Shown piece by piece: positions 29,848-51,425 of a stretch of DNA of 51,502 nt. Each line of letters opens with the position of its first letter. The first letter of the stretch is position 1. Source of the DNA: Escherichia coli. Its GTDB lineage: Bacteria > Pseudomonadota > Gammaproteobacteria > Enterobacterales > Enterobacteriaceae. The notes under the pieces were generated by a model. The model was not told the origin of the DNA. It did not search any database and saw nothing but the letters and a program-made list of their open reading frames with translations. Location: NCBI RefSeq assembly GCF_003334255.1, contig NZ_QOWU01000037.1. One strand, given 5' to 3'. The position numbers and the translations under genes are program-made.

Positions 29848-30545
29848 ACACTTGCTCCTTTCAGCCCAAACTTAGCTTTGATTTCTGCGATCTTCGCCAG
29901 AGCCTGTGCACGATTTAGAGGTCTACCGCCCATAACAGGAAGTTGTTTTACTGGTTCAGGTATCGTCTCACCACGGTTAATTCGCGCTGTCATACAGGTC
30001 AGTTCATCGGCAGCCTTGCGCCGTAATTCCGCGTCAGTCAGCGCATTGGCCCGCATGTTCTGGTACAAGTTGGTAACCAACCAGTAATGCGCGTTCGATT
30101 TCCACGGATAAGACTCTGCATCCGGATACAGGCCACGCTTCCGGCAATACTCGTAAACCATATCAACCAGCTCGCTGACGTTTGGCAGCCCGGCGTTAAC
30201 AGATGCTTCTTCCCGGCACCAGGCGACAAACTGCCCGGGTGATGGCAGGAATGGTCGATTCTGCCGACGGGCTACGCGCATTCCAGCGTTAACCTGTTCC
30301 ATTGTGGTGATCCCGTTTTCCCGGAAAGCCAGAACCCACTGGCGACGGATTTCGTTCAGTTCATTCTGGTCACGGTTAGCCAGGCTCGCCGGGAAAGTTG
30401 CCAGTAACTGGCTGAACACACCGTTGATGATCTGCGCTACCTGCTGTACCTGTGGCTTTTCGTCGTACTGTTCCGGCATGTTGTTGGCGATCCGGCGCAT
30501 CTGCTCACAGTCAAAGTTAACCATCTGTGCGGCGATGTTTTTCAT
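29844..30545 (-). CDS. P: Replication protein P (DnaB loader), lambda type
   Basis: 233 aa, near-identical to lambda P as recalled (MKNIAAQMVNFD.EQMRRIANNMPEQYDEKPQVQQ...). Confidence 0.95.
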   Translation of the reverse strand: MKNIAAQMVNFDCEQMRRIANNMPEQYDEKPQVQQVAQIINGVFSQLLATFPASLANRDQNELNEIRRQWVLAFRENGITTMEQVNAGMRVARRQNRPFLPSPGQFVAWCREEASVNAGLPNVSELVDMVYEYCRKRGLYPDAESYPWKSNAHYWLVTNLYQNMRANALTDAELRRKAADELTCMTARINRGETIPEPVKQLPVMGGRPLNRAQALAKIAEIKAKFGLKGASV

Positions 30546-31471
30546 AGCTCCACCCCGTAAATCCAGTCAGTGTTCGTCAGGTCGAGTTTTGGTTTGCCGG
30601 CTGTCACGCCAGCCTGTTGCTTGTTTCGGTTGATTTCGAGCTGGGTCCACTTGTCGCGGAGTTTGGCCGGACTTAGCACGTTACCGGACCAGAAGTTGTC
30701 CTGGCATGCCCAGCGGAACAGCACGCACATGTCGCGGTGGTTACGTCCGTCACGTTCACGCATCAGGCGGATATCGTTAGCCCACCCAGCAAAATTCGGT
30801 TTTCTGGCTGATGGCGCGATGGTCTTCACCATGTCAAACATCCACTCTGCGGCGGTCAGGTCTTCTGCTGTCCCCCACTTGCTGCCGCTCTGAATTGCAG
30901 CATCTGGTTTCACCACAGGAAGATCGTTTTCTGGTTGGTCAGAGGATTCGCCAGAATTCTCGGACGAAAAAGGTTTTATATTGTCTTTTGTTAGTTTGTC
31001 TTTTGTGTTTACCTGATTCGGGTAAACGCCTTTACCTGATTTGGGTAAACTTTTTTTACCTGATTCAGGTAAATTTACCTCTTTCAGGTAAACTTTATTT
31101 TTCTTACCTGATTCGGGTAATGTTGACCATTCACTGACCACATTATTAATGCCGGTATTCCGCCCGCTCTGAATAAAAATCCCACGCTTTACCAGAACAC
31201 TTTTTGCAGCAGAACACTTGTGCGGCAATATCCCGGTTAATTCGGAAAGTTGCTCGTTGCTAACCCAATCCAGTTTTTTATTAAAGCCATATGTTTTGCG
31301 CATGACAGCCAGAAAGACCAGAAGCTGGTGCTGTGTTAATCCGGCCAGCATCACAGCTTCCAGCAACTCATTTGCAATGCGCGTATAACCATCATCGAGA
31401 TCTGCCACGCGCGGCTCCTTTTGTGCCGCATCCGGCACTGGAAAATTGAATATCTCAGCAGTGTTTGCCAT
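30542..31471 (-). CDS. O: Replication initiator O (novel N-terminal DNA-binding half, lambda-like C-terminal P-interaction half)
   Basis: The start MANTAEIFNF.. aligns with the lambda O start MTNTAKILNF and has a GGAGGA Shine-Dalgarno. The C-terminal SENSGESSDQPENDL..NTDWIYGVEL is lambda-like. Confidence 0.9.
   Translation of the reverse strand: MANTAEIFNFPVPDAAQKEPRVADLDDGYTRIANELLEAVMLAGLTQHQLLVFLAVMRKTYGFNKKLDWVSNEQLSELTGILPHKCSAAKSVLVKRGIFIQSGRNTGINNVVSEWSTLPESGKKNKVYLKEVNLPESGKKSLPKSGKGVYPNQVNTKDKLTKDNIKPFSSENSGESSDQPENDLPVVKPDAAIQSGSKWGTAEDLTAAEWMFDMVKTIAPSARKPNFAGWANDIRLMRERDGRNHRDMCVLFRWACQDNFWSGNVLSPAKLRDKWTQLEINRNKQQAGVTAGKPKLDLTNTDWIYGVEL
31008..31121. repeat. Origin iterons (five copies of TTACC-N8-GGTAA) inside the O gene
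   Basis: Copies start at 31008, 31031, 31055, 31074 and 31103 (tttacctgattcgggtaaac and variants). An AT-rich tract at 30968-31007 lies on the O-downstream side, as in ori-lambda. Confidence 0.8.
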
Positions 31472-31557
31472 AATTCCTCCCGCAATGAGTGTGTTACGAT
31501 TTGCACCTGAAAGTCGGTTCTGTTCCAGCAGACCGGCTTTCGCCATTTCTGAACCTG

Positions 31558-32097
31558 TCATATCGCCCCCAGCATGGTAGTAACCATCGCCATCAATGGA
31601 CCAGCCAGATCTGGGTCCACACGAAACATCGACACAATACCTTCACTAATTTCCTTCAGTTTCTGGTGGCGTGGTGCGTTGAGAATGACAGCCTGTTTTG
31701 CCTCACTGAGTTCCTTTTCCATTTCAGCCAACCTAGCCATGAAGCTATCCTGCTCAACCAGGTAACCGCGATATTCCAGCGGTAGTACCGCCAGAATTGC
31801 CGGGGTCAGTTCACGCACGTTATTTCGGTATTTTTCAGAATCGAATTTGTTATCGAGGAAGCGGAACAGCTTCTGGCGTGCACGGCTGACATCATCAGGG
31901 AAATCGATGGTGCCGCCGCCCTGCTCCCGATACTCATTCACAATGAGTGTGGCAACGACATCCTGATTATCTACAGCCGACCAGGCGCGGACGGCATCAC
32001 GGATTTTTTCGTGGCCTGGCACCTGTTTTGTTTGAGAACGATTTATCACCGCAGTCGGGCTAAATCCGCTAGTCTGTTGGTATGTAAGTGGTTGCAT
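31558..32097 (-). CDS. YdaT-like protein (CII-position regulator of Rac-type immunity regions)
   Basis: EYREQGGGTIDFP and LTPAILAVLPLEYR resemble Rac YdaT motifs. It lies directly after the cro-like gene. Confidence 0.65.
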   Translation of the reverse strand: MQPLTYQQTSGFSPTAVINRSQTKQVPGHEKIRDAVRAWSAVDNQDVVATLIVNEYREQGGGTIDFPDDVSRARQKLFRFLDNKFDSEKYRNNVRELTPAILAVLPLEYRGYLVEQDSFMARLAEMEKELSEAKQAVILNAPRHQKLKEISEGIVSMFRVDPDLAGPLMAMVTTMLGAI

Positions 32098-32141
32098 AAT
32101 TGACTCCTTTAGTTTGAATTGACTGTTAAGTTGATTGCTTA

Positions 32142-32154
32142 TTGTTAAAGAGCG
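32142..32154 (-). promoter_or_regulatory. Consensus boxA element just downstream of cro (nutR position)
   Basis: The minus strand reads CGCTCTTTAACAA. GCTCTTTAACAA equals the rrn boxA consensus. It starts 13 nt after the cro-like stop codon. Confidence 0.6.
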
Positions 32155-32166
32155 TGAAATGGAAAT

Positions 32167-32397
32167 TTAAGCTGCGTTCTTTTCGGTGTGTGGAAACAAC
32201 TTCGGAAGATCCGGGCGAATCTGGTATGCCTTCACTACTCCACCAGTAGCCGTAACAATGCTGCCGACATGTTCAGGGGATACCTTTGCTTTGTTGTGAA
32301 GCCACTTATAGACGGCCTGCTGTGAAACTTCGCAAGCAGCGCCCAGTTTCTTTTGTGAACCAACGATATTGATCGCTGTTTTGATAGCTGGGTTCAT
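32167..32397 (-). CDS. Cro/YdaS-like HTH repressor
   Basis: 76 aa. HTH (KKLGAACEVSQQAVYKWLH), a GGAGG Shine-Dalgarno, and divergent orientation from the S24 repressor. Confidence 0.75.
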   Translation of the reverse strand: MNPAIKTAINIVGSQKKLGAACEVSQQAVYKWLHNKAKVSPEHVGSIVTATGGVVKAYQIRPDLPKLFPHTEKNAA

Positions 32398-32424
32398 AAC
32401 AACCTCCGTGGTTAATTTGAATCA

Positions 32425-32453
32425 AGATTAAAACTATGGTTGTTTTTAGTCAA
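32425..32453 (-). promoter_or_regulatory. Putative pR (TTGACT-17-TAATCT) with a 17-bp operator in the spacer
   Basis: -35 at 32448-32453 and -10 at 32425-32430 on the minus strand. The palindromic operator aaaactatggttgtttt at 32430-32446 fills the spacer. Confidence 0.5.
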
Positions 32454-32466
32454 CAACCATTTTCGT

Positions 32467-32495
32467 TTGATGGAATAAAACCTTGGTTGTACATT
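32467..32495 (+). promoter_or_regulatory. Putative pRM (TTGATG-17-TACATT), giving a leaderless repressor mRNA
   Basis: The -10 ends 6 nt before the ATG at 32502. No Shine-Dalgarno is present. An operator-like aaaaccttggttgtaca (32477-32493) overlaps the promoter. Confidence 0.4.
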
Positions 32496-32501
32496 TGGAC
32501 T

Positions 32502-33191
32502 ATGAAAACAACACTCTCAGAAAGACTTAAAGAAGCCAGATTAGCGCGAGGCCTTACACAAAAGGCGCTTGGGGATTTGGTCGGGGTTAGCCAGGCTGCT
32601 ATTCAGAAAATCGAAACAGGGAAAGCTAATCAAACAACTAAAATCGTGGAGATCGCGAACGCTTTGGGTGTGCGCGCAGAATGGTTATCTTCTGGCGTTG
32701 GAAATATGTCAGACAGTACAGTGCAACCAATACAATCAACTGTCAGCCATTCCAAATACTTCAAGATTGACGTTCTTGATATAGAAGTCAGTGCTGGGCC
32801 GGGAGTCATCAACCGTGAGTTTGTAGAAGTTCTACGCTCGGTTGAGTACTCGTTTGACGATGCTCGTCACATGTTCGATGGTAGGAAGGCGGAAAATATC
32901 CGCATCATTAACGTGCGTGGTGACAGCATGTCAGGAACGATCGAACCAGGTGATCTGCTGTTCGTTGATATCACAGTTAAATCTTTCGACGGTGATGGTA
33001 TCTATGCGTTTCTGTACGACGACACAGCCCATGTAAAGCGCCTGCAAATGATGAAGGATAAGCTGCTGGTCATCTCTGATAACAAAAGCTACTCACCGTG
33101 GGACCCGATCGAGAAAGACGAGATGAACCGGGTGTTCATCTTCGGTAAGGTTATTGGGAGCATGCCGCAGACATATAGGAAGCATGGGTAG
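32502..33191 (+). CDS. CI-type prophage repressor (HTH plus S24 LexA-like autocleavage domain)
   Basis: MKTTLSERLKEARLARGLTQKALGDLVGVSQAAIQKIETGK... followed by GDSM..(Ser) and ..VKRL (Lys) peptidase S24 motifs. Confidence 0.85.
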   Translation: MKTTLSERLKEARLARGLTQKALGDLVGVSQAAIQKIETGKANQTTKIVEIANALGVRAEWLSSGVGNMSDSTVQPIQSTVSHSKYFKIDVLDIEVSAGPGVINREFVEVLRSVEYSFDDARHMFDGRKAENIRIINVRGDSMSGTIEPGDLLFVDITVKSFDGDGIYAFLYDDTAHVKRLQMMKDKLLVISDNKSYSPWDPIEKDEMNRVFIFGKVIGSMPQTYRKHG

Positions 33192-33312
33192 TACCAATTA
33201 AAAATTATCAACTGGGCATTGTGCTCATTCAGTAAAGAACTAATTCCTATCTTTGCTCTAGGTAGTAATATTAAGCCACCGCAATAATATCTTTACCTAA
33301 CGGCGTAAGAAT

Positions 33313-33339
33313 CCCGGTCACCGTGCCGGGTTTTCTTTT
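33313..33339 (+). terminator. Rho-independent terminator after the repressor gene
   Basis: cccgg-tcaccgtg-ccggg followed by ttttcttttg. Confidence 0.6.
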
Positions 33340-33464
33340 GCCCTCCCCTCATCACACACACCGTTAAAAAAACCACCATAACCTCGCTTCAGTTATCGCT
33401 ATGCGATTCAAGTCACAAAATAAATCCATCCTAAATACAACCAGTTATATCTAAAACAACCAAT

Positions 33465-33509
33465 AAAACAACTTTTGTTGTTGACGATAAAACAACTATA
33501 GTTTTAAAT
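33465..33509 (+). promoter_or_regulatory. Putative pL (TTGACG-17-TTAAAT) with two 17-bp operators
   Basis: aaaacaactatagtttt (33489-33505) lies in the spacer and aaaacaacttttgttgt (33465-33481) abuts the -35, 24 bp centre to centre. They share AAAAC-N7-GTTTT with the pR operator. Confidence 0.5.
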
Positions 33510-33786
33510 AAGTTCATCGCAACAACACAACGATACGGCAACTACCTGATTCACCGTTGCGATGACCGCTTAGATCCGCAGTTTGAATTTCAGCAGGCTT
33601 CGGGGAGTGCGAGGGGTGAAACGGACGCGTGAACGTCGGTGTGACCAGCTGAAATTAACTCAACATTTCATACCTTAGTCGCTTCAACGAGGCGGCTTAG
33701 TTATGACAACCGGCGGCCATCCACCGCCTGAATACGCGCAGAAGTCTCTATATGTTCAGCAGCCCAGCTTACGGGCAGGAGTTTTT

Positions 33787-33993
33787 ATGGTTCATCAACA
33801 TTATGGAACGCAGACCGTTAATCGAGGTGCGGTCATGCCAGGAATGCTGGTCAAACACAAAGATGGTACCTGGACTGCATCAGCTAATTTACGCGGACGG
33901 CTTTATCTGCATCGCGGCATCGAGTGCACTTATACCCGTGATTTGCTCGTGGAAGTTTTTCTCGACGGACGCGGTAACGGCCTGAATCACTAA
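33787..33993 (+). CDS. Hypothetical first protein of the pL operon (68 aa from MVHQ)
   Basis: AGGAG lies 5 nt upstream of the ATG at 33787. It is not Arg-rich and shows no resemblance to N, Kil or CIII. Confidence 0.4.
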
Positions 33994-34068
33994 TCCCCTT
34001 TCCTGTTTTCCTAATCAGCCTGGCATTTCGCGGGCGATATTTTCACAGCCATTTTCAGGAGGTCAGCC

Positions 34069-34365
34069 ATGAACGCTTATTACATTCAGGATCGTCTTGA
34101 GGCTCAGAGCTGGGCGCGTCACTACCAGCAGATCGCCCGTGAAGAGAAAGAGGCAGAACTGGCAGACGACATGGAAAAAGGCCTGCCCCAGCACCTGTTT
34201 GAATCGCTATGCATCGATCATTTGCAACGCCACGGGGCCAGCAAAAAAGCCATTATCCGTGCGTTTGATGACGATGTTGAGTTTCAGGAGCGCATGGCAG
34301 AACACATCCAGTACATGGTTGAAACCATTGCTCACCACCAGGTTGATATTGATTCAGAGGTATAA
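34069..34365 (+). CDS. gam: Gam (RecBCD inhibitor), lambda type
   Basis: [44 protein letters not shown]... is near-identical to lambda Gam as recalled. Confidence 0.95.
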
Positions 34366-36468: not shown

Positions 36469-36490
36469 ACATGAAAAGCAAAATCATCAG

Positions 36491-36511
36491 GGAGCTACAG
36501 GCTCCTTTTTT
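36491..36511 (+). terminator. Rho-independent terminator inside the pL operon (tL-like)
   Basis: ggagc-tacag-gctcc followed by TTTTTT. Confidence 0.6.
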
Positions 36512-36566
36512 ATTGTTCGCATTCACCCTCAAGCGTATTAACCAACAATTCAGGGATTAATGGAAG

Positions 36567-37112: not shown

Positions 37113-37434
37113 GGCCTGTCAGTTTCTCAAGATATCCAGACCTACCGCTACCAACTGGATACGAACAGGCCGCCTACAGGCAACACGCAAAGACCCCACT
37201 AAACCAAAATCTCCTTACCTCACAACGCGACAAGCCTGCATTGCGGCGCTTCAGTCTCCGCTGCATACTATCAAGGTGAGCGCGGGTGATGGCATAACAG
37301 AGGAAAGAAAATGTCACTCTTCCGCAGAGGTGAAATATGGTACGCCAGTTTCACATTGCCGAACGGTAAAAGATTTAAACAGTCTCTTGGAACAAAGGAC
37401 AAAAGGCAGGCGACAGAACTCCATGACAAGCTAA
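37084..37434 (+). CDS. xis: Excisionase, P22 type
   Basis: [45 protein letters not shown]..., 116 aa. It overlaps the int start by 124 nt, as in P22-type modules. Confidence 0.8.
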
Positions 37435-38474
37435 AGGCTGAAGCATGGCGGGTCAGCAAACTTGGTGAAATACCTGATATAACGTTCGAGGAAGCGTGTG
37501 TCAGGTGGCTTGAAGAGAAAGCACATAAAAAATCACTGGACGATGACAAAAGCCGGATCGGATTCTGGCTTCAACATTTCGCAGGAATGCAACTAAGAGA
37601 CATTACTGAATCAAAAATTTATTCAGCAATGCAGAAAATGACGAACCGGCGTCATGAGGAAAACTGGAAACTCAGGGCAGAAGCATGCAGAAAAAAAGGG
37701 AAACCTGTTCCAGAATACACGCCAAAACCAGCGTCCGTTGCAACGAAGGCTACGCATCTTTCATTTATAAAGGCCCTACTAAGAGCCGCAGAGCGTGAAT
37801 GGAAAATGCTGGATAAGGCACCAATTATTAAAGTGCCTCAACCAAAGAATAAACGGATCCGCTGGCTGGAGCCCCATGAAGCACAAAGGCTGATTGATGA
37901 ATGTCCGGAGCCATTAAAGTCTGTTGTTGAATTTGCACTGGCAACAGGCTTAAGACGCTCGAACATCATCAACCTTGAATGGCAACAAATAGATATGCAG
38001 CGCCGGGTGGCATGGATAAACCCGGAAGAGAGTAAATCAAACCGCGCAATCGGCGTTGCGCTGAATGATACTGCATGTCGCGTTTTGAAAAAACAAATCG
38101 GGAATCATCACCGTTGGGTATTTGTGTACAAGGAAAGCTGTACCAAACCAGACGGAACGAAAGCGCCAACAGTAAGGAAGATGCGGTATGACGCAAACAC
38201 AGCCTGGAAAGCAGCGCTGAGGCGGGCTGGTATTGATGATTTCAGATTTCACGACTTGAGACACACCTGGGCAAGTTGGCTGGTTCAAGCCGGAGTCCCG
38301 TTGTCAGTGTTACAGGAAATGGGAGGCTGGGAGTCTATCGAAATGGTTCGTCGATATGCTCACCTTGCACCTAATCACCTTACCGAACACGCACGGCAAA
38401 TAGACTCGATCCTGAACCCATCGGTCCCAAATTCGTCCCAGTCAAAAAATAAGGAAGGTACTAATGATGTGTAA
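37311..38474 (+). CDS. int: Tyrosine integrase, P22/SfV type (thrW-specific)
   Basis: 387 aa beginning [38 protein letters not shown]..., with catalytic R..HDLRHTW..Y motifs. The stop is 14 nt from the tRNA 3' end. Confidence 0.95.
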
Positions 38475-38488
38475 CTTATTGATTTAAA

Positions 38489-38564
38489 TGGTGCCGATAA
38501 TAGGAGTCGAACCTACGACCTTCGCATTACGAATGCGCTGCTCTACCAACTGAGCTATATCGGC
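38489..38564 (-). tRNA. thrW: tRNA-Thr (anticodon CGT)
   Basis: The reverse complement, GCCGATATAGCTCAGTTGGTAGAGCAGCGCATTCGTAATGCGAAGGTCGTAGGTTCGACTCCTATTATCGGCACCA, folds as a cloverleaf with a TTCGTAA anticodon loop and a CCA end. Confidence 0.95.
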
Positions 38565-50684: not shown

Positions 50685-51011
50685 ATGACTAAAAATACTC
50701 GTTTTTCCCCCGAAGTCCGTCAGCGGGCGATTCGTATGGTTCTGGAAAGTCAGGATGAATATGACTCACAGTGGGCGGCAATTTGTTCCATTGCCCCAAA
50801 GATTGGCTGTACGCCGGAGACTCTGCGTGTCTGGGTTCGCCAGCATGAGCGGGATACCGGGGGCGGTGATGGAGGGCTCACCACCGCTGAACGTCAGCGT
50901 CTGAAAGAGCTGGAACGTGAAAATCGTGAACTGCGCCGCAGTAACGATATCCTTCGCCAGGCTTCCGCTTATTTTGCGAAGGCGGAGTTCGACCGCCTCT
51001 GGAAAAAATGA
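50685..51011 (+). CDS. IS629 OrfA (HTH transposase subunit)
   Basis: [105 protein letters not shown]. Confidence 0.9.
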
Positions 51012-51425
51012 TGCCACTGCTGGATAAGCTGCGTGAGCAGTACGGGGTCGGACCGGTATGCAGCGAACTGCATATTGCCCCGTCAACGTATTACCATTGT
51101 CAGCAACAGCGACATCATCCGGATAAACGCAGTGCCCGTGCGCAGCACGATGACTGGCTGAAGAGAGAGATACAGCGCGTATACGATGAAAATCATCAGG
51201 TGTACGGTGTGCGTAAAGTCTGGCGTCAGTTGTTACGGGAAGGAATCAGGGTGGCCAGATGTACAGTGGCGCGCCTCATGGCGGTTATGGGACTTGCCGG
51301 TGTTCTCCGGGGTAAAAAGGTCCGCACTACCGTCAGCCGGAAAACCGTTGCCACAGGTGACCGCGTAAACCGTCAGTTCGTGGCAGAACGTCCTGACCAG
51401 CTGTGGGTGGCTGATTTTACTTACG
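51008..51425 (+). pseudogene. IS629 OrfB (DDE transposase), truncated before the catalytic core
   Basis: [46 protein letters not shown]... The native continuation VSTWQGF is replaced by unrelated sequence from 51426. Confidence 0.8.

Follow-up and report, generated by a model that had tools for sequence, protein, structure and literature searches.

How a lambdoid prophage that carries no N gene could express the distal genes of its early-left operon is the question raised by the locus described here. The window analysed, a 51,502-nucleotide stretch of the Escherichia coli contig NZ_QOWU01000037.1, is occupied by a lambdoid prophage whose pL operon is of the N-less lambda-like type (Table 1; the gene order of the operon was taken from an annotated related prophage). 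In lambda, nutL/nutR and N occupy the same place in the early-left transcript as the leader considered below and have the same presumed purpose, namely read-through of tL. Inspection of the open reading frames between pL and kil disclosed no N gene, tblastn queries comprising the N proteins of lambda and phi80 as well as neighbouring proteins matched no N remnant, and the RefSeq/PGAP annotation of a close relative, a prophage with 100% identity in the queried stretch, has Q as its only antiterminator. The window has no terminator between pL and kil, gam, bet and exo, so any need for antitermination is limited to the distal genes; a terminator-like hairpin is predicted further on, in an intergenic gap of the operon, upstream of a dksA-like gene and of the putative integrase gene. 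The locus is far from rare: the stretch 33340-33800, which is 100% identical to phage PhiR34_1 and 99% identical to phage Turner, is matched in 2242 of 5426 complete E. coli genomes, and at least 80% of this pL-to-kil stretch is present in 2014 of the 5426 (~37%).

Table 1. Features of the prophage early region and of the pL leader, in window coordinates.
Feature	Position	Strand	Description and basis
O-like replication gene	30542-31561	-	ORF list and annotated related prophage
YdaT/CII-like gene	31558-32097	-	ORF list and annotated related prophage
cro	32167-32397	-	ORF list and annotated related prophage
cI	32436-33191	+	ORF list and annotated related prophage
cI terminator	33313-33340		after cI, before OL/pL
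OL operators and pL	33463-33509	+	-35 TTGACG 33481-86, 17-nt spacer, -10 TTAAAT 33504-09; sequence
Module A, 5' leader segment	33516-33560	+	from the predicted start; cross-immunity homology begins at 33516
Stem 1 as transcribed	33516-23/33556-63		module A
Small alternative hairpin AUCG...CGAU	33516-19/33531-34		module A
Module B, candidate put-analogous antiterminator	33561-33656	+	96-nt conserved RNA; nhmmer, BLAST, alignment A4
B stem-loop 1, apical helix Hc	33580-85/33594-99 (33580-33599)	+	RNAalifold, covariation
Purine-rich linker CGGGGAGUGCGAGGGGUGAA between the two B hairpins	33601-33620	+	near-invariant in all B types in A4
B stem-loop 2, helix P3	33621-27/33634-40 (33621-33640)	+	RNAalifold, covariation
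B 3' tail GCUGAAAUU, 3' arm of the 9-bp stem	33648-33656	+	wobble-compatible changes only
Module C, junction cassette	33666-33786	+	homology in phages and IMG/VR; RNAalifold
C hairpin 3	33668-33706		lower stem UCAUA/UAUGA over AUG 33703; mid stem 33677-85/33689-97
C hairpin 4	33712-16/33724-28		conserved
kil (FtsZ inhibitor, 68 aa)	33787-33993	+	first real pL-operon gene; ORFs, RefSeq/GenBank annotation, Kil alignment
gam	34069 (start)	+	downstream of kil
bet	34371 (start)	+	downstream of gam
exo	35153 (start)	+	downstream of bet
Intrinsic terminator-like hairpin	36489-36516	+	GGGAGC UACAG GCUCC then U6; canonical; predicted
Large ORF	37311-38474		integrase by position; ends the listed gene order of the pL operon

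Several features of the surrounding prophage may be recorded here. A tRNA-Thr(CGU) gene at 38489-38564 (-) directly follows the large ORF and is likely the attachment site of the prophage; a closely related prophage in strain R7 adjoins icd. Within the O-like replication gene, five iteron-like repeats (TTTACCTGATTCGGGTAAA) at 31008-31129 probably constitute the phage origin. The gap between cI and pL (33192-33460), the position of rexAB, is empty in the window except for the cI terminator; in relatives it is a cargo slot, with a SIR2 protein, a HipA-family kinase together with DUF3037, an ASCH-domain protein or RexAB as its contents (L007:549-2150; L008:864-2437; L002:2052-3468; L138:936-2219). 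An ALIL pseudoknot, the frameshift signal of the IS3 family, lies near the window end (50966-51082, +); this element and one tRNA were the only matches when the window was scanned against Rfam 15 at the gathering thresholds.

The start of the pL transcript can be placed by comparison among relatives. A promoter scan did not return pL because its -10 element has T at position 2; the OL operator repeats match the repeats at pR (I1, I5, D15), and relatives of other immunity have TTGATA-17-TATTAT in the same register as pL. In a comparison that spans at least three distinct sets of operators, homology among the prophages begins at 33516, 7 nt past the -10 element, and this position is A or G in all variants. 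The onset of homology and the invariant A/G at this position support a transcription start there and a leader of 271 nt. An earlier note on this DNA had proposed a leader of about 270 nt without coding potential, and both statements agree with our results, since the predicted start at 33516 is followed by the kil start at 33787 and the candidate reading frames are broken among relatives. It had also treated 33510-33700 as one leader element; the leader is instead composed of three modules, A, B and C, and the part from 33666 onwards is a different, widespread module. A Klebsiella phage sharing the operators has a short and different leader.

Candidate reading frames in the leader were considered and discarded. 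The ATG at 33703 is in frame with kil, but relatives interrupt this frame by indels and by a polymorphic stop at 33676. An arginine-rich 31-aa ORF with a TTG start (33583-33678, including KRTRERR) was considered as a miniature N, but its frame is not conserved, being shifted in YZLc4-1 and closed by a stop after 5 codons in L272. For an upstream ORF encoding MTTGGHPPP, a candidate leader peptide, the nucleotides are kept and the frame is broken, by indels (L214, L241) and by the variable stop at 33676. The codon at 33676 is polymorphic (TAG/CAG), and many relatives thereby gain a long frame running through B and C into kil (L005:2730-3149); this polymorphism explains the inconsistent lengths of 68, 96 or 139 aa given for Kil in GenBank.

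The central part of the leader, module B, is bounded by the points where homology to the loci L272, L284 and L380 begins and ends. A model of this module (R2) scores it at 128 bits and finds it as a single copy in the window, with no second copy on the pR side. Homologues of about 81% identity occur in four further sequence types, on IMG/VR and metagenome contigs whose flanks are unrelated, and B is also carried, unannotated, in 16 GenBank phages. The linker CGGGGAGUGCGAGGGGUGAA served as the search pattern for B elements; in a metagenome scan for B types, 118 of the 120 matches were unrelated GC-rich DNA and the other two were known types.

The earlier note had likened this region, by position and structure, to putL of phage HK022. 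The put elements of HK022 and HK639 are cis-acting RNAs that make RNA polymerase terminator-resistant without a phage protein; ten put sequences are known, all of them mutually alignable, and the mechanism was solved structurally in 2022 (PMC9378689). The positional part of the analogy proved stronger than had been proposed, as in relatives with the HK639-type leader a homologue of 33561-33656 fills exactly the slot that is taken by put in HK639 and CobraSix, with near-identical flanks. We compared 120 leaders (HK639, CobraSix and IMG/VR contigs) having the HK639-type 5' segment GTTAGCCAGCGGCGAAGTGGA, which is followed by put in 102, by B in 13, by a put variant in 4 and by a consensus boxA in 1. 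L380, which has B, is 97-100% identical to HK639, which has put, over more than 500 nt downstream, as against ~30% over the swapped ~100 nt; the shared downstream part includes the first gene and also the 3' hairpin that lies within the GenBank annotation 'putL-like antiterminator RNA'. The same pattern of replacement is seen between L272 (B) and L328 (put). The exchange extends to the junction with module C, to which put is directly joined in L369 and B in the window. In the loci examined, some of which lack the pR side, B and put never occur together. The first gene after B varies (kil in the window, a TerB/TciB-like gene in L272, HK639_45 in L380), and no protein gene travels with B across the three genomic backgrounds. 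In all three, strong intrinsic terminators occur further along the operon that contains B (L272, 9086-9103; L380, 5859-5876; and the predicted hairpin of the window).

Module B is nevertheless not a member of the put family. As the earlier note had remarked, the leader offers no sequence match to put: a covariance model built from 8 put RNAs (R1), by which known puts score 66-99 bits, found nothing at E<=10 with filters off in 31000-34000, which covers the pL and pR leaders of the window, and had no match in the B-carrying loci. The assignment of B as an HK022-type put was therefore rejected; it lacks the put consensus stem I (GAACGGC...GUCGG) and stem II (GGCGGG...CGGCAAU), and the motif ACGG...GUCGG seemingly shared by put stem I and B hairpin 2 is taken to be a coincidence, not being conserved in the other B types. 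Among the likenesses, B lies just downstream of an early promoter (+46 from pL) in an N-less lambdoid phage, and it is a compact RNA in the range of ~70-100 nt with two irregular stem-loops. Two hairpins of B covary within its 96 nt; its basal helices are invariant, and its fold is not superimposable on that of put. B also resembles HK639 in its single pL-side copy, the put of HK639 being annotated and detected by the model only at pL. The differences are the absence from B of the invariant put residues (GAACGGC, GUCGG, GGCGGG, CAAU), its greater length, its conserved 20-nt purine-rich linker and a possible pseudoknot. In HK639 there is no pR-side put, and an 'M3-like RNA' is annotated after the cII-like gene (L387:1011-1070).

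The structure of B was derived with RNAalifold from 22 distinct variants representing about five sequence types, and the consensus consists of two adjacent irregular stem-loops. In the first, the apical helix Hc shows exchanges at pairs 20/39 (AU<->CG), 21/38 (GC<->AU) and 22/37 (CG<->UG), and is extended at its base by the invariant pairs 33576-78/33601-03 and 33567-69/33609-11; its loop AAUUUCAG (33586-93) is almost invariant, the exceptions being A/G at 33592 and one single-base deletion at 33586. In the second, the helix P3 shows exchanges at 61/80 (AU, GU, GC), 65/76 (AU<->GC) and 64/77 (GC<->GU), and position 63/78 is G.G, G-C (L272) or U.G (L492). Double-sided compensatory changes occur at four B pairs. 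In the consensus, 94.8% of cells are paired, compared with at most 38.5% when the partners are slid, and none of 500 shuffles reached the observed covariation score or number of double-changed cells. With few independent lineages (the five or so sequence types), this covariation is suggestive rather than overwhelming, and the two adjacent double changes of Hc split just two lineages and may represent few evolutionary events; within these bounds, the compensatory changes point to selection on B at the RNA level. The folding energy of B is by itself unexceptional (z -0.28 for B alone; range z -0.2 to -1.6), and the 28-nt hairpin of stem-loop 1 has z -2.23.

These comparisons separate the helices proposed in the earlier note. 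Its internal hairpin at 33621-33640 corresponds to P3 and is upheld by compensatory changes in relatives, whereas neither its first stem nor its 9-bp stem (33586-94/33648-56) covaries; these two proposed stems are not the conserved ones. The complementarity of the 9-bp stem is exact and the 77-nt segment that it closes has z -2.97, but the stem is absent from the consensus fold and shows no double-sided covariation: its changes are two wobble-compatible one-sided ones, its outer two pairs are broken in 11/22 and 5/22 rows, and the covarying hairpin 33580-99 has this stem's 5' arm as its loop. In the window, the fold of the earlier note and the two-stem fold have energies of -28.0 and -27.1 kcal/mol, a gap of 0.9; the two-stem fold has the minimum free energy in the most frequent E. 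coli variant and in each of the three further B types that were folded. The 3' tail may pair with the Hc loop, whether this gives a competing fold or forms stem 2 of an H-type pseudoknot (33588-93/33649-54); such a pseudoknot, combining both folds, would be geometrically possible. An inner helix of the minimum-free-energy fold (33598-602/33610-14) was discarded, as it is contradicted by the U/C/A polymorphism at 33600 and by L272.

On either side of B the leader has other properties. Module A is specific to this E. coli group; only the initial ~19 nt have a likeness in other phage leaders, namely to the +1 region in HK639, CobraSix and L272. The 10-bp stem placed there by the earlier note (33514-23/33556-65) is exactly complementary, but no better than chance and without covariation: the predicted start comes only after its first 2 nt; folded as RNA, the stem has -8.6 kcal/mol with z -1.16, 25/200 shuffles being at least as stable; and the O157 Z570 relative has another sequence in place of the 5' arm. 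We regard stem 1 as either dispensable or unsupported. Module C, on the other hand, holds the strongest structure of the region (z -4.61 for a 70-nt segment, 0/200 shuffles). It is common to phi80, HK225, Enterobacter and Klebsiella phages and more than 100 IMG/VR contigs (for instance L014:2501-2640, L015:2501-2600, L016 and L017), and is laid out as CAUACC, a strongly covarying hairpin, GUUAUGACAACC-GGCGG-CCAUCCA-CCGCC and a conserved ribosome-binding region, that of kil in the window. The covarying hairpin, hairpin 3, has six pairs with double-sided compensatory changes in at least 5 sequence types (RNAalifold) over an invariant lower stem; no Rfam match was found for C. Elsewhere C directly follows an intrinsic terminator and precedes many different genes; in phi80, which has N, it comes after N and its terminator and not before. 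C is not the element standing in for N.

We have established that B is a non-coding, conserved and discrete module with two covarying helices, which excludes put in the loci examined, is interchangeable with it in position, and is found in N-less phages ahead of terminators. From the analogy with put we infer that it would bind polymerase and bring about processive read-through, and we regard the chances as evenly balanced that B is a put-like cis-acting antiterminator RNA of different sequence and fold. In the scheme that we propose, RNA polymerase would leave pL at 33516 and transcribe B as nucleotides +46 to +141; B would fold co-transcriptionally into its two irregular stem-loops, with apical helices 33580-99 and 33621-40 joined by the linker CGGGGAGUGCGAGGGGUGAA, possibly locked by pairing between the first loop and the 3' tail. 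The folded RNA would then bind the very polymerase that is transcribing it, with a contact that, by analogy with put, may lie near the RNA exit channel and the beta' zinc-binding domain. The action of put is blocked by rpoC mutations in the zinc-binding domain. The modified complex would pass downstream terminators such as that at 36489-36516, and such read-through of distal terminators would allow the delayed-early genes (dksA-like, xis, int) to be expressed without an N protein. The inserts found at the swap site could also be tolerated rather than equivalent.

It is improbable, in our judgement, that B is instead a non-processive leader element, whether a Rho shield, a site of mRNA stabilisation or processing (by RNase III or RNase E) or a fold switch. 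Long untranslated leaders are Rho targets, as this one of ~270 nt would otherwise be; the lambda N leader also bears a large processing hairpin, and B has two near-isoenergetic folds in the window. However, the element that B replaces is a proven processive antiterminator and not a processing site, the genes after B are unrelated between phages, which makes a gene-specific switch unlikely, and B, lying away from the 5' end, is no 5' stabiliser.

Similarly improbable is that B acts as a nut-like recruitment site, bound by host Nus factors or by a phage antiterminator encoded elsewhere. Its invariant single-stranded linker and near-invariant loop do resemble recognition surfaces. However, 33516-33786 contains no boxA within 3 mismatches of CGCUCUUA / GCUCUUUAACAA, no N-like gene was found, no gene travels with B, and an exchange of put for B leaves the flanks identical. 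A lambda-type nut site in particular was rejected, the leader having neither boxA nor boxB, and the prophage no N gene. The only exact boxA of the window (GCUCUUUAACAA) is at 32142-32153 (-), just downstream of cro in the nutR position, with no boxB hairpin and no N gene; with this perfect boxA present, Nus-dependent mechanisms may operate in these phages. Such an exact boxA follows cro in 37 of the 93 B-carrying loci with enough upstream sequence, in several immunity types; it is absent in the relative 4A7 and is thus not coupled to B. Since the pR operon of the window has this consensus boxA and no copy of B, another mechanism may act there. A boxA also occurs at the site of B itself in L160, a case that favours recruitment and recalls the rrn-type boxA dependent on NusB/NusE, although B has no boxA of its own. 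This Enterobacter soli prophage (L160:1018-1670) combines the HK639-type segment, a partial put stem I and a consensus boxA (UGCUCUUUAACAA), after which comes a GC-rich untranslated leader of ~600 nt, part of which also follows B in L284-type contigs.

A role for B as precursor, early after induction, of a small RNA acting in trans or of an RNA sponge is very unlikely: prophage early-left operons can encode small RNAs upstream of division inhibitors, as with DicF, encoded upstream of dicB, but B itself contains neither a promoter nor a terminator and has no Rfam match, and the put/B swap would be left unexplained. Equally remote, and disfavoured, is that the stems are complementary by chance, within mosaic filler DNA that does nothing as RNA; although the folding scores of B and of the whole leader are unexceptional (z -0.42 for the leader, z +0.54 for A and B together) and the whole pL operon is highly conserved among these prophages, so that conservation alone says little, two helices carry compensatory changes, B keeps ~81% identity within otherwise unrelated flanks, and its sharp module boundaries are reused in three contexts.

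Returning to B as a put-like antiterminator, some further comparisons place it among known elements. The EAR RNA of the Bacillus eps operon is an RNA-based processive antiterminator. The likeness to B is that of a structured RNA acting in cis, with a proposed role in read-through along a long operon, but it differs in organism and context, which are unrelated, and the leader matches no Rfam family. The Rfam scan at E<=10 of 33200-34100 yielded chance-level matches only (best E 0.99), and no family was credibly matched in the leader. Other N-less pL-to-kil leaders have different structured elements (L143:2310-2500 in Leclercia; L146:2250-2500 in Citrobacter youngae; L141/L142). One example reads ...GAAGUAGCC-stem-GGCAUAYGAAKA-stem-AUGAGGUGG..GAUUAAC, with compensatory changes between Leclercia and Citrobacter youngae, and L141, L142 and L146 have a long stem of ~18 bp upstream of kil. 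These elements of the L141-L146 type may be further leader classes.

To our knowledge, no phage RNA other than put has been known to confer terminator resistance on RNA polymerase unaided. The ten known puts align with one another and B would not align with them, and B is outside Rfam 15; it is therefore classed apart from the put family. We propose, at somewhat less than even confidence, that B represents a second, evolutionarily unrelated class of RNA-only processive antiterminators, which, bound to E. coli RNA polymerase, reprograms it and is interchangeable with put. Natural put/B chimeras already mark the boundaries of the modules. If the proposal is correct, RNA-only antitermination would have evolved more than once, the comparison of B with put would give a handle on the polymerase surfaces that an RNA can use, and the pL leader would be a swap site for alternative antitermination devices (put, B, boxA and others). 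It would also explain how delayed-early genes are expressed in the N-less E. coli prophages of this very common family.
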